Shown: positions 3,787 to 6,784 of the stretch, in pieces
Layout: the number at the start of each line of letters is the position of its first letter
Position numbering within the stretch: position 1 is the first letter of the stretch
Assembly: GCA_038279365.1 (NCBI GenBank)
Contig: JAYODI010000150.1
Coordinates: forward strand, 1 to 6,784
Length of the DNA stretch: 6,784 nt
Source: Candidatus Latescibacterota bacterium
GTDB lineage: Bacteria > Latescibacterota > UBA2968
Direction: 5' to 3'
Made by a program: the position numbers and the translations under genes
Notes under the pieces: generated by a model
Told to the model about the DNA's origin: nothing
Databases searched by the model: none
What the model saw: the letters and a program-made list of their open reading frames with translations, nothing else

Positions 3787-3827
3787 TACAAAACAGTCTG
3801 AAGCAAATAACCTCAGACCGTTTTGTA
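3787..3827 (-). terminator. Intrinsic terminator downstream of the DUF4038-type gene
   Basis: On the - strand TACAAAACGGTCTGAGG-ttatttg-CTTCAGACTGTTTTGTA, a 17-bp inverted repeat whose two mismatches are G-U wobbles only in the - strand RNA. The GC core is followed by TTTTGTAT and starts 4 nt after the stop codon at 3832. Confidence 0.85.
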
Positions 3828-3831
3828 GGAT

Positions 3832-5250
3832 TTACACTTTGGTGATTCTCAACGCCATAAATGGTTTGCTGGGTACTTCAAGATCAAATGTGCCACTGAA
3901 GGTGCCGTCAACGGGGGTGGTGGTCATTTCCCACGTGTCGATGATTTCGATTTTGAATGAGATGTCTTCGGGCAGTTTGAGGGGTTTAACTGCAGATTGG
4001 TGTGGGCCGAGGTAGGCGAGGTAATATTGGTTGGGAATGCCAGCCGCGGCAATGCCAATGTTGACGGGGTCGATGGGGCCGGGGCCTGCTTCCATAATGT
4101 CGCGTAGAAATTGAATGCGTTTGGGGCTGGTGCCGTGAAGCACGCCGCCTTTGCTCCACCAGAGAATGTCGTCGGGGTGCAGGTAGGTTTCGCCGTGGCC
4201 CACGTAACCGCCACTTGCAAACCCGCTCCAAAAGCGTTTGGTGAGTTCTTGGCCTGTGATATTGCCCCAGCCTTGGTGAACGTTGCCTTCGTAACAACAT
4301 TCGTCGTCTACGGCGGGTTTGTTGTATTGGTTTCGCCAGGTGGGCGATTGGCCGGGGTCGGGGCGTTGAATGCTGCTGTGGGTGACCCAGGGTTTGTTGT
4401 GGTCATAAAATTGGCGGCAGTTGTGAATGCCACGCAGGTGTTGAACGGGGTCGTGGGTTTGCACGATGCGGAAGAAGCGGTCCCAGTCTTGTTCGGTTTT
4501 GGCTTTCATGAGGTCGTATTCGTTGGCGAAGGACCACCAGATGTTTCGGTAGGCGGCGAGGCGGGCGACGGTGTATTTGAGGTAGCGGTCGTCGGTTTCG
4601 GCGTCCATTTCTTTGAAGCCCCAGCGGTCGTAGGGGTGAAAGAGAATGAGGTCGGCTTCGATGTTGAGGTCGCGTAGGTCGGCAATTCGTTTTTCGAGGT
4701 GGTGCCAGAAGGCGGGGTTGAAACGTGTAAAGTCCCAACCGGTTTCGGGGGTGCCTTCGAAGGGGTAATATTCGGGTTCGTTGCGGTTGTAGGAGTAGTG
4801 TTTGGGGAAGACACACATTCTGATTTTGTTGAAGGGGCCGTCTTTGAGGGTGGCGAGGGTTTGCTCTTCGAGGGTGTCGCCTTGGTGGTTCCAAACGTAA
4901 CAGGTGGTGCCAAAGGAGTAGTGAGGGGTGCCGTCTTCGTATTGGAAGTGGAAGGTTTTGTGGACGCGTACGGGGCCGTGGTTGTTGCCGGTTGCGGGGG
5001 TGACGGTGAAGGTGCCGGTTTGGTTGTTGAGGGATTCGATGTTGCTTTTTGTGGTGTAGGTCCAATCGCCTTCGGTGTCGGGCATGAAGCGGATTTTGTA
5101 GGTGCCGTTGCCGTCGTAGAAACCGTCTACGGGGACGGTGCGGTTTTTTTGTTTGAAGTCGGCGGTGAGTTGGACTTCGGTGAAGGGGTTACCTTCTTGG
5201 GGGCCGGTTAGGGTGGTTTCGAAGATGGTCCAGCGTTCTACTTGTTGCAT
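3832..5250 (-). CDS. DUF5060/DUF4038/DUF5605-type putative glycoside hydrolase (TIM barrel, apiosidase/GH140-related domain), cytoplasmic, 472 aa
   Basis: N-terminal VERWTIFE...GNPF...VDGFYDGNGTYKIRFMPDTEGDWTY (DUF5060-like); GTTCYVW, PFNKIRMCVFPK, EADLILFHPYDRWG, WWSFANEYD and DDECCYEGN in the catalytic domain; C-terminal IEIIDTWEMT...PFMALRI (DUF5605-like). Start moved from 5361 to ATG 5250 because AAAGGAGA (5265-5258) lies 7 nt upstream and the extra 37 codons are AT-rich and overlap a structured element. No signal peptide. Confidence 0.85.
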   Translation of the reverse strand: MQQVERWTIFETTLTGPQEGNPFTEVQLTADFKQKNRTVPVDGFYDGNGTYKIRFMPDTEGDWTYTTKSNIESLNNQTGTFTVTPATGNNHGPVRVHKTFHFQYEDGTPHYSFGTTCYVWNHQGDTLEEQTLATLKDGPFNKIRMCVFPKHYSYNRNEPEYYPFEGTPETGWDFTRFNPAFWHHLEKRIADLRDLNIEADLILFHPYDRWGFKEMDAETDDRYLKYTVARLAAYRNIWWSFANEYDLMKAKTEQDWDRFFRIVQTHDPVQHLRGIHNCRQFYDHNKPWVTHSSIQRPDPGQSPTWRNQYNKPAVDDECCYEGNVHQGWGNITGQELTKRFWSGFASGGYVGHGETYLHPDDILWWSKGGVLHGTSPKRIQFLRDIMEAGPGPIDPVNIGIAAAGIPNQYYLAYLGPHQSAVKPLKLPEDISFKIEIIDTWEMTTTPVDGTFSGTFDLEVPSKPFMALRITKV

Positions 5251-5328
5251 TTTCTGTTCTCCTTTGGAAAGGCAATTTTTGATTTGTTGAGTAATTAAAA
5301 AGATAATTATATTGCCTTTTTGATTGTA

Positions 5329-5508
5329 TGCCTTCGGCGACTTACTTTTTTTCAACAGCAAAAAAAAGTAAGCAAAAAATGCCGTCCCTCAGGTGCCGGG
5401 AGGGCTGATTTTCCGCAAATACCGTTTGAGGGTGCAACAGGGTATTTGGCCTGTCAGCTCAGATGTTTTTAAGAAGATCAAAGCTGGACGGAATGGTGCG
5501 GAAAATCA
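5329..5508 (-). ncRNA. Unassigned structured intergenic element (candidate ncRNA, cis-regulatory leader or non-autonomous repeat)
   Basis: Two perfect 12-bp stems (5406-5417/5497-5508 and 5341-5352/5361-5372), two nested inner stems, a 5-bp hairpin, a pseudoknot pairing that needs a G-U pair on the - strand, and a terminal GCC-GAA-GGC mini-hairpin. No family recognised with certainty. Confidence 0.55.
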
Positions 5509-5590
5509 TGATTGTTTTGGGTGATGGGTTTGTGGGCTGTTTTGTTTTTTATGTGATAGATATTAAGGTTGTAGTCCGTAGGACTTTTGT

Positions 5591-5626
5591 AATTGTAGCG
5601 AGGGAAATTATTCCCTCGCTACAATT
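5591..5626. repeat. Perfect 16-bp inverted repeat, REP-like (GTAG...CTAC core); may also act as a 3' stabilising or terminating hairpin of the dehydratase mRNA
   Basis: AATTGTAGCGAGGGAA (5591-5606), loop ATTA, TTCCCTCGCTACAATT (5611-5626), 9 nt after the stop codon at 5636. There is no proper U-tract on either strand. Confidence 0.7.
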
Positions 5627-5635
5627 CGGTACATC

Positions 5636-6763
5636 TTAGACCGCGTAAGCCACAGAGCCATCATCGCGAAGGGGGGTGTTGATTTGGGTGAGGGGGGCGA
5701 AGGGGGTTTTGGCGATGAGGGTGTCGTCGAGTTCTACGCCGAGGCCAGGGGCTTGGGGGATGGGGATGTAGCCGCCTTCGCGTTTGTAGGAACATTTGTA
5801 GATGGCGTTGTTTTCGGCTTCGTCGCGTTTGGTGTATTCTTGGGTGACAAAGTTGGGGATGCTGGTGTCGAGGTGGAGCGATGCGGCGGTGCCAATGGGG
5901 GTGAGGAAGTTGTGGGTGACGACGGCAGAGTGATACGATTCGGCAATGGCAGCAATTTTTTTGCAGTGGGTGATGCCACCGGCCAGGGCAATGTCGGGGC
6001 GCACGTATTGGGGGCCGCCGTGTTCTAAGAGTTCGCGAAATTCCCAGATGGTGGTGAAGCGTTCGCCATTTGCAAAAGGTACGTTGAGGCGTTTGGCAAT
6101 GTCGGCTTGGGTGGTGATGGTGTCTATTTGAATGGGGTCTTCTATGAAGAGGAGTTCAAATTGTTTGAGGGCTTCGCCAAGAGCAATGCCAACCATTGGG
6201 GTGAGTTTGCGGTGGACTTCGATGATGAGGTCTACGTCGGGGCCACAGGCTTCGCGGGCGGCGGCGGTGATGTCTACGGCGGTTTTGATGAGGCGGGCTT
6301 GGGTTTGGTTTTGGTAGCCACCTGGTAGGGGGTCAAATTTGAGGGCGGTGAAGCCTTCTTCTTTGGCGGCTTTGGCGACGTCATACATTTTTTCGGGGGT
6401 TGGGCCACCAGCCAAGAGGTGGAGGCGAATTTTGTCGCGGCAGTTGCCACCTAAGAGTTCCCAGACTGGGGCCTCGAAGTGTTTGCCTTTGATGTCCCAT
6501 AGGGCAATGTCTACGGCGCTAACGGCACCTGAGAGGGCGGTGCCTCTGAAGGGGGCCATTCGGTAGAGGTGTTGCCAATGGTGTTCGATGCGCAAGGGGT
6601 TTTGGCCAATGAGGTAGTCTTTGAAGACGTTGACGATGCGTTCGGTGGCTTCGGGGTAGCCCCAAAAGGCCGATTGGCCAATGCCGGTGATGCCGGTGTC
6701 TGTGGTGAGGCGCACCACGTAGCTGTTACCGAGTAAGAGGTGTTCGAGTTTGTCGATTTTCAT
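5636..6763 (-). CDS. Mandelate racemase/muconate lactonizing enzyme family protein (enolase superfamily), galactonate dehydratase (DgoD)-like sugar-acid dehydratase, substrate uncertain
   Basis: 375 aa with AGGAG (6774-6770) before the ATG. Family signature SAVDIALWDIKGK...PVWELLGG; K142, metal ligands E182/E208/E234, H184, D257-H284 dyad, E309; PGLGVELD; DgoD-like C-terminal tail RDDGSVA. Confidence 0.92.
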   Translation of the reverse strand: MKIDKLEHLLLGNSYVVRLTTDTGITGIGQSAFWGYPEATERIVNVFKDYLIGQNPLRIEHHWQHLYRMAPFRGTALSGAVSAVDIALWDIKGKHFEAPVWELLGGNCRDKIRLHLLAGGPTPEKMYDVAKAAKEEGFTALKFDPLPGGYQNQTQARLIKTAVDITAAAREACGPDVDLIIEVHRKLTPMVGIALGEALKQFELLFIEDPIQIDTITTQADIAKRLNVPFANGERFTTIWEFRELLEHGGPQYVRPDIALAGGITHCKKIAAIAESYHSAVVTHNFLTPIGTAASLHLDTSIPNFVTQEYTKRDEAENNAIYKCSYKREGGYIPIPQAPGLGVELDDTLIAKTPFAPLTQINTPLRDDGSVAYAV

Positions 6764-6784
6764 GGGAGGCTCCTAAAAGAATGG

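Follow-up and report, generated by a model that had tools for sequence, protein, structure and literature searches.

A stem-closed domain upstream of a Latescibacterota glycoside hydrolase gene is probably half of a structured interspersed repeat with MITE-borne relatives

What is the strongly folding non-coding DNA that lies upstream of a glycoside hydrolase gene in a Candidatus Latescibacterota bacterium, and does it belong to that gene? The stretch in which it was noticed (the window) is the whole 6784-bp contig JAYODI010000150.1 (C24) of assembly GCA_038279365.1 (G000, this genome; 6.03 Mb, 199 contigs, 46% G+C). Throughout, G-, C- and L-numbers denote genomes, contigs and fetched loci, and g1, g4, g5 and g9 denote genera, g1 being the genus of G000 and g5 its sister genus. 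The domain sits in a 385-nt spacer (5251-5635) that is bordered on both sides by genes on the - strand. An earlier note had described it as a three-way junction closed by a perfect 12-bp stem, and had offered a riboswitch-like leader, a standalone non-coding RNA or ribozyme, and a non-autonomous mobile element as explanations. We conclude, with a probability of roughly 0.75, that the stem-closed domain makes up the 3' half of a copy of a structured non-coding repeat of ~200 nt, which in the sister genus is borne by MITEs (miniature inverted-repeat transposable elements).

The spacer is not unique. A BLAST-type search returned 43 matches to it elsewhere in G000, and an iterated nhmmer profile found 81, of which 39 were full length, 27 covered the head only (the first ~75-90 model positions) and 15 were partial; several of the partial ones lie at contig ends, which indicates that short-read assemblies are broken by these repeats. 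All copies in this genome are intergenic, and the window copy is 72-94% identical to the others. Among the 35 full copies for which both neighbours were called, 16 lay in the same direction as both flanking genes, 11 opposite to both, 5 between convergent and 3 between divergent genes. Pfam families were assigned to 68 of the 74 flanking open reading frames, so that the crude gene calls appear sound, and these families are highly diverse. They include seven sulfatases, five mandelate racemase/muconate lactonizing enzyme (MR_MLE) entries (one gene counted twice), heparinase and GH4; DHFR, FolD, SelA, MutS, AcrB, IlvD and the E1 and E2 components of 2-oxoacid dehydrogenase; and an ECF sigma factor, a sigma-54 activator, peptidases and ABC transporters.

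This setting bears directly on the proposal that the fold is a riboswitch-like or attenuator leader controlling the hydrolase in cis. Read on the - strand, the unit does lie between the end of the upstream gene and the hydrolase start, with 79 nt between that start and the head end of the repeat, and its GC-rich hairpin followed by six U residues resembles an expression platform. However, the 81 matches in one genome, 39 of them full copies, occur in both orientations and beside unrelated genes, which excludes a hydrolase-specific switch; the interior of the domain, the would-be ligand pocket, is unconserved even in the orthologous copy; and no Rfam family matches. The gene-specific switch is thereby refuted, and we attach almost no credence to a cis-acting leader at this site. 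Gene context and copy number had been named as checks by the earlier note: the context proved diverse, against gene-specific cis-regulation, and the number of copies is that of a many-copy repeat. The note's view that no known RNA family is present held, as a scan with Rfam 15 was empty at E <= 1 in the region and gave 0 matches at E <= 0.1 in six further loci.

The borders of the unit were read from other copies. Metagenome contigs that carry them part from the window sequence at 5324-5330 and at 5517-5525, and in the contigs of four metagenome runs the summed depth was 600-1260 inside the unit versus 9-15 outside it. None of the contigs of these four runs joined across an empty site at the window locus; one 76-nt skip (5253-5330), found in a single run only, is not interpretable. 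The unit (hereafter the core) consists of a head (5330-5405), a stem-closed tail (5406-5508) and a right end (5509-5531). Its parts were followed in alignment A1, which holds 71 distinct full copies from G000 and at least nine other Latescibacterota assemblies, and are as follows.

5328-5531, + strand (as the family model is oriented): the core, one complete repeat unit; the nhmmer model covers 5319-5531
5330-5338, + strand: H1, a small hairpin GCC-UUC-GGC, read in the sequence
5341-5372, + strand: H2, an AT-rich 12-bp hairpin, CTTACTTTTTTT / AAAAAAAGTAAG, with arms 100% complementary
5374-5379, + strand: A6 run between H2 and H3, its columns nearly invariant in the 71 copies
5381-5405, + strand: H3, a GC-rich hairpin, GCC.UCCC / GGGA.GGC, with a 9-nt loop, from folding
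5406-5417, + strand: 5' arm of P1, the 12-bp long-range stem, TGATTTTCCGCA, from the inverted-pair search and covariation
5418-5496, + strand: tail interior, variable in the alignment of 71 copies, in orthologues and in contigs
5497-5508, + strand: 3' arm of P1, TGCGGAAAATCA, from the inverted-pair search and covariation
5509-5531, + strand: the unit's right end, where GTGATGG stands at a fixed place (5522-5528) and a G+T-rich stretch comes next, from flank composition

Across the 39 own-genome copies the stem of H1 is kept and its loop is variable (TTC, TGC, TCC, TGT, TTT). H2 folds with z = -4.7 on either strand, and shows compensatory variants among the own-genome copies (cttac/gtaag, cctac/gtagg, cccac/gtggg). 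H3 is bordered by the A-run before it and by TGATTTT after it, and has a fold energy of -11.9 kcal/mol on the - strand and -13.3 on the + strand; read on the - strand, the A6 run becomes a U6 run directly after H3. The arms of P1 enclose 79 nt, within which two short motifs are conserved, GGCCTG (5448-5453) and GGACGGAAT (5486-5494), and the metagenome contigs of other copies leave the window sequence at 5436 and rejoin it at 5482. In the 120 nt after the stem, taken over 48 copies, GTGAT is 8-fold enriched and the composition is T 35, G 33, A 21 and C 11%.

Some further observations on the build of the unit were made. The right flank (5509-5560 in the window; 120 nt past the tail in the 48 copies) is G+T-rich regardless of the strand of the neighbouring gene. 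GTGATGG stands at one fixed place, with a second one ~13 nt further on in 9 of the 48 copies, and the right flank in the sister genus holds four spaced GATGGC motifs. A palindromic mini-insert of ~27-35 nt is found within some copies, at varied positions and in both orientations; it reads gaatgagagtaatttgagcattc in G000 and GAGCGGGGTACAACTGCCCCAGCAGTTC in the sister genus, where it sits at two GC|AAA sites. Its carriers include C191, C103, C36, C34, C175, C111 and C159 of G000 and loci L074, L078, L054 and L044, and it looks like a tiny nested mobile element or an optional hairpin module. The 27 head-only matches, for their part, form a sister family that has the H1 and H2 module in common with the unit, a different GC hairpin and a different partner domain of ~60 nt (gtaaaaacactgaacaaaattt...), for example at C129:55679-55754, C49:8745-8814 and C20:39561-39639. 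Between tandem genes, 16 of 20 sister-family copies face a start codon, mostly from 27-90 nt away, and several of the genes so faced have sulfatase-like N-termini.

How much of the fold belongs to the family? The pairings that the earlier note listed are present in the window. The P1 arms, TGATTTTCCGCA (5406-5417) and TGCGGAAAATCA (5497-5508), are exact reverse complements; the pairing of CAAATACC (5416-5423) with GGTATTTG (5441-5448) is exact; and CAGCT (5455-5459) / AGCTG (5482-5486) and CCCTC (5386-5390) / GAGGG (5400-5404) stand where they were described. The suspicion that such folding exceeds chance was also borne out: the domain 5404-5510 gave z of -4.4 (+ strand) and -6.4 (- strand), and none of 200 dinucleotide shuffles folded as well, and 5380-5515 gave -3.9 and -5.3 against dinucleotide shuffles.

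Conservation selects among these pairings. Across A1, 88.6% of the cells of H2, H3 and P1 pair, versus 80.2% in shuffles, and the covariation score of these three is 0.233 versus 0.096, a value above that of all 500 shuffles; slid controls scored 0.02-0.07. Pairs changed on both sides number 8 of 12 in P1, 5 of 12 in H2 and 3 of 7 in H3. The arms of P1 pair in 91% of the cells of the 71 copies and fall into groups, with GATTTTCCGC/GCGGAAAATC in one and GCACAGCGC/GCGCTGTGC in another, and single-copy compensations occur as well (for example TTTTTCGC/GCGAAAAA and CCACA/TGTGG). Judged by these alignments, compensatory changes appear to keep P1, the AT-rich H2 and the GC-rich H3.

The two inner helices of the proposed junction fared otherwise. 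As a family trait they pair in 32.2% of cells across the 71 copies, compared with 30.7% in shuffles and 26-44% with slid partners. The CAAATACC/GGTATTTG helix is unused in minimum-energy folds, and the orthologue of the window copy in the congener G002 has lost this pairing. For the second inner helix, the within-copy complementarity is 10.84 versus 10.34 +/- 0.28 with swapped partners. The interior segment folds with a mean z of -0.3 to -0.5, and a small hairpin after GCAAAT is weakly enriched, with stems of at least 5 pairs in 25 of 76 copies versus ~15 in shuffles. Because the inner helices pair at the level of shuffles and the first of them is lost in the congener's orthologue, they and the three-way junction appear to be features of the window copy alone, and the closing 12-bp stem alone a conserved feature of the family.

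Other details of the described structure had to be revised. For the GC hairpin, covariation favours UCCC/GGGA plus GCC/GGC over the CCCTC/GAGGG register; the suggested CCCTCA/TGAGGG pseudoknot is not kept, as other copies have TGTGGG or AGTGGG for the partner and the sister genus lacks it; and the '~180 nt of contiguous nested pairing' was an overstatement, the conserved pairing consisting of three hairpins and one long-range stem. RNAalifold prefers a long-range pairing, TTCGGCG/CGCCGRG (A1 columns 19-27 with 117-123; ~5333-5339 with ~5394-5400 in the window), which competes with H1 and H3 and varies by G-C to G-U and U-A to U-G changes only.

The link between the core and mobile DNA comes from the sister genus. 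In copies from one complete g5 genome, conservation runs on past the core as far as terminal inverted repeats, which close the block. Type 1 ends read (TA)GGTCGTGTTGACATTT... / ...AAATGTCAACACAACC(TA) and type 2 ends ATACCAATTTGA... / ...TCAATTTGGTAT; of 32 loci in that record, nine have a type-1 pair, eight a type-2 pair, twelve one-sided or mixed ends and three none. In ten loci of a second complete genome the core is bounded by two further end types, TACTCTGTAAATTAA and CCATCTGTACCAACT; in the sister genus it also gains left and right modules. G022 has 266 occurrences of the type-1 motif, versus 2 of a reversed control. One 497-bp unit there (L160) encloses the core between both inverted repeats, each with TA on its outer side, and a 376-bp unit (L161) has ends of the same type without the core. 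The same genome holds an 818-bp IS5-family insertion sequence (L158:317-1134) with a near-identical end, GGTTCTGTTGACATTT, and TA outside; it encodes DUF4096 and DDE_Tnp_1 domains and belongs to NCBIfam NF033580, the IS5-family transposase. Since the type-1 ends match this element, its transposase could move the MITEs in trans. A unit of ~503 bp (L162:1257-1759, G022) recurs full length elsewhere in G022 at 87-92% identity and is missing at the orthologous site in all eight other g5 genomes in which both flanks were matched; the junction at this site is not clean because the unit lies inside other inserted DNA.

The proposal of a non-autonomous mobile element therefore stands for the family, in which an IS5-family element matches the terminal inverted repeats around the sister-genus core, copy number ranges from 7 to 286 among g5 species and copies are missing at orthologous sites. 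It does not extend to the window copy in the same form, as this has no recognisable inverted repeats.

The mobile elements of g5 offered some details of their own. The transposase of the L158 element lies in two overlapping frames joined at an A9G6 run, likely a programmed frameshift, and the element is inserted at a TA within the left end of a type-1 MITE. Short tandem arrays adjoin MITE copies, of the GGTAAGAG/GACGTAAGAG type and as (CACGGATGAA)n, at L162:1080-1250 (G022) and in L067.

The unit has a narrow range. A BLAST-type search matched it in 22 of 41 relatives and, across a sample of the phylum, in 25 of 121 genomes: 2 of 2 in g1 (plus G000), 1 of 1 in g4, 20 of 20 in g5 and 1 of 1, weakly, in g9, with 0 matches in the other 40 genera of the sample. 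The exact 24-mer of the head has 66 loci in the species collection, 65 of them in metagenome-assembled genome records titled Latescibacterota or Latescibacteria. The plasmid collection held no match to the element, and a single phage match (E 3e-6), which covers 56 nt of the A/T-run hairpin, was put down to low complexity. By these searches the family appears to be confined to three to four genera of one Latescibacterota family. First-look candidate counts across g5 species run from 7 to 286, which is a pattern of bursts. A literature search brought up no publication on repeats of this sort from the phylum; the repeat is an undescribed element of an ordinary kind, a MITE-borne interspersed repeat and not a riboswitch.

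Several results weigh against this reading and have to be set beside it. A search round the window copy and the other 39-40 in G000 gave no consistent inverted repeat, and the four end types of the sister genus are absent near 40 copies of G000, bar one one-sided match at chance level. In neither the own genus nor G022 could a target-site duplication be aligned, and no clean empty site was found; the TA outside the type-1 units and the insertion sequence of G022 is indistinguishable from part of the repeat itself, and the IS5-family element has only its 16-nt inverted repeat in common with the MITEs. As to the fold, most of the covariation of P1 comes down to a single switch of arm type that was passed on to many copies. 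Loci L023-L088 were fetched by an exact 24-mer over H1 and the 5' arm of H2, which is why these parts are invariant in the A1 loci concerned. Wobble cells in the core of P1 number 4 G-T versus 2 A-C, too few to name the transcribed strand, and a larger overall excess of G-T was traced to fixed end pairs. The folding z of H3 is just -1.6 on the - strand and -0.5 on the + strand, and a simple terminator scan does not call it, because its stem is interrupted and its loop is 9 nt long.

For the copies in G000 these negatives have a consequence. The type-1 motif gives chance-level matches only in this genome, DDE_Tnp_1 matches number two, and the genome yielded no insertion sequence whose ends would make it a partner. 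All-against-all BLAST of the flanks of its copies recovered other repeat families only. With no inverted repeats of its own, the window copy would owe its membership of the MITE group to its relatives, and with no partner insertion sequence found in G000 it is most likely immobile now.

Orthologous sites tell how such copies age. Four loci were compared with two congeners (G001 and G002), and the copy is kept at the same site in three of them (the window locus, C10 and C167). The copy of C41 is absent in both congeners, where the orthologous intergenic regions measure 92 and 138 nt versus 315 and 358 nt in G000. Five comparisons at three loci gave the following identities.

Head: 69-95%
P1 arms with adjacent motifs: 78-94%
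Tail interior: 58-65%
Neighbouring intergenic DNA: 7-64%
Coding flanks: 74-91%

Over 'ACGGAAT + 3' arm', orthologous copies are 81-92% identical, and on these figures the tail interior seems to drift like neutral DNA. That the hairpins, the stem and the motifs are kept while the interior and the flanks drift argues that selection or gene conversion maintains the core. The orthologue of the window copy itself (L089, in G002:C302; window 5250-5640) has another head subtype (cgacctac.../gtcgcc...) and identical P1 arms, which suggests gene conversion or replacement between copies.

These identities are also what a host-level functional module would leave, that is, a useful portable part of RNA or DNA (for instance a two-way terminator or insulator, an element for RNA stability, or a site to which a protein binds) which purifying selection maintains and which several transposons merely picked up. 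Such a module would overlap with the MITE-borne repeat that we favour, the difference being what maintains the core. The head and the P1 arms are far better conserved than adjacent intergenic DNA at orthologous loci, one core is found in at least four chassis with different inverted repeats, the invariant A6 run that flanks H3 is a U6 run on the other strand, and copies without inverted repeats persist in three species of the own genus. A copy number that moves between 7 and 286 among species of one genus, the lack of orientation bias relative to genes and the failure of the terminator scan to call H3 are, however, hard to fit to it, and the other head subtype of the G002 orthologue points to turnover or conversion rather than to simple purifying selection. 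We regard a host module as a tentative possibility, somewhat below even odds.

In the MITE-borne account, the core is carried in the sister genus by MITEs with terminal inverted repeats of at least four types, and the IS5-family transposase could move those of type 1 in trans, with TA at both outer ends. The copies in G000 would be old descendants of such MITEs and immobile now, and the window copy, like the others in this genome, would have lost such inverted repeats or never had them. When read through from neighbouring genes, the core may act as RNA: H3, with its flanking A-run and U-run, could halt or insulate transcription both ways, the long stems could give stable RNA ends, and both together might make the insertions tolerable to the host. 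The stop or insulator role of H3, which we infer, is the weakest point of this explanation. A further step, rather unlikely in our judgement, would be that the core is a domesticated portable RNA module, useful enough for at least four unrelated transposon chassis to carry, which may serve as a two-way transcription insulator or as the docking site for an RNA- or DNA-binding protein peculiar to this Latescibacterota lineage, and whose hairpins and stem would be under host selection after the transposon ends decayed.

Transcription of each copy from its own promoter to its own terminator, as in a multicopy family of small-RNA genes, would make sense of the strong and conserved fold, and at first sight the window agrees: a scan found a sigma-70-like site on the + strand just upstream of the unit (TTGATT-17-GATAAT, 5279-5307) and a + strand hairpin with a T-run downstream of it (5573-5585). 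The window holds one promoter-like and one terminator-like site, versus 0.8 and 1.4 expected, and both signals are within chance. Over 38 copies, promoter-like scores on the upstream side, and past the tail for the other strand, equal those of the intergenic control, so that neither flank of the copies is richer in sigma-70-like promoters than control intergenic DNA; the sigma-70-like consensus may not be that of this phylum. All 20 records that match the window at 3800-6784 are DNA metagenome contigs and none is RNA. The downstream hairpin, moreover, belongs to another repeat family, and 12 of the 40 occurrences of its motif in G000 lie near a copy of the first. A small-RNA gene family is therefore improbable, and the standalone RNA or ribozyme of the earlier note finds no support. 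The neighbours of the unit in the window are the following.

3832-5250, - strand: glycoside hydrolase gene with DUF5060, apiosidase-like and DUF5605 domains (Pfam)
5560-5635, + strand: copy of a second, independent repeat family, outside the element studied here (inverted-pair search and terminator scan)
5636-6763, - strand: mandelate racemase / muconate lactonizing enzyme family gene (Pfam)

In the window the second family consists of the AGTCCGTAGGACT hairpin with its T-run (5573-5585), followed by a 16-bp hairpin (5591-5626) centred on GGAA(A/T)TTATTCC. At least two structured repeat families thus stand side by side in one spacer (5251-5635). The long hairpin of the second family shows compensatory variants, with an extra loop insert in some copies, and G002 is without the window's second-family repeat.

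Several hairpins and no inverted repeats in G000 would also suit a palindromic repeat that acts at the level of DNA, of the REP/BIME or IS200/IS605 kind served by a Y1 transposase (RAYT or TnpA), or a guide-RNA scaffold for TnpB, and TnpB genes were found in 14 of 15 g5 genomes. Against this, no Y1 gene turned up in G014 (228 candidate copies) or G022 (93 candidate copies), searches of G000, G001 and G002 were empty for TnpB, and the element model gave 0 matches in eight fetched Y1/TnpB loci. We consider such a repeat very improbable. Matches to the IS630-type transposase PF13358 number 35 in G014, 1 in G022 and 0 in G000. A separate observation concerns G003 (same family, 8.4 Mb), which has 75 matches to the Y1 transposase (PF01797), most of them near-identical frames of ~160 aa; this is apparently a large IS200/IS605-type expansion in a genome without the repeat studied here.

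One practical outcome is that a false lead is removed: the fold upstream of the hydrolase should not be annotated as a sugar-sensing regulator. A wider one is that the genomes of the Latescibacterota, an uncultured phylum, are crowded with structured intergenic repeats. One core in MITEs with four end types, together with orthologous copies free of inverted repeats, makes a testable case of cargo capture or exaptation, and raises the question of why four transposon chassis carry one folded cargo and why the host keeps the core.

Among known systems, MITEs are the class to which the repeat comes closest. It is short (~200 nt) and non-coding, has many copies and shows presence and absence at orthologous sites; bounding inverted repeats and an autonomous element with matching ends were found in relatives (G022) and not in G000. 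The Correia elements (NEMIS) of Neisseria are MITEs of ~100-155 bp with inverted repeats and a TA duplication, which are co-transcribed and folded as RNA. Like them, the repeat described here is a small, non-coding, high-copy intergenic element with a strong RNA-like fold, found in both orientations beside unrelated genes, and its sister-genus form has TA at both outer ends. Unlike in Correia elements, the fold is an internal core of several hairpins and not the pairing of the two terminal inverted repeats, and this core occurs with at least four unrelated types of inverted repeat and, in G000, without any.

In pneumococci, BOX elements are modular (A-B-C) and RUP is a MITE derived from an IS630 element. 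The repeat resembles BOX in its modularity, the head occurring with a different partner domain in the 27 head-only matches, and RUP in that a cognate insertion sequence has ends in common with it; it differs from both in its Latescibacterota lineage, its IS5-family partner, its longer unit and the compensatory change in its internal stems. The ERIC/IRU and BIME/REP sequences of enterobacteria are interspersed, intergenic and structured repeats, and as with ERIC and BIME some of the copies described here are kept at orthologous sites and others have been gained or lost. Unlike REP, the repeat has no RAYT link and a larger unit and, unlike ERIC, it has relatives that yielded both a bounding inverted repeat and an insertion sequence to match.

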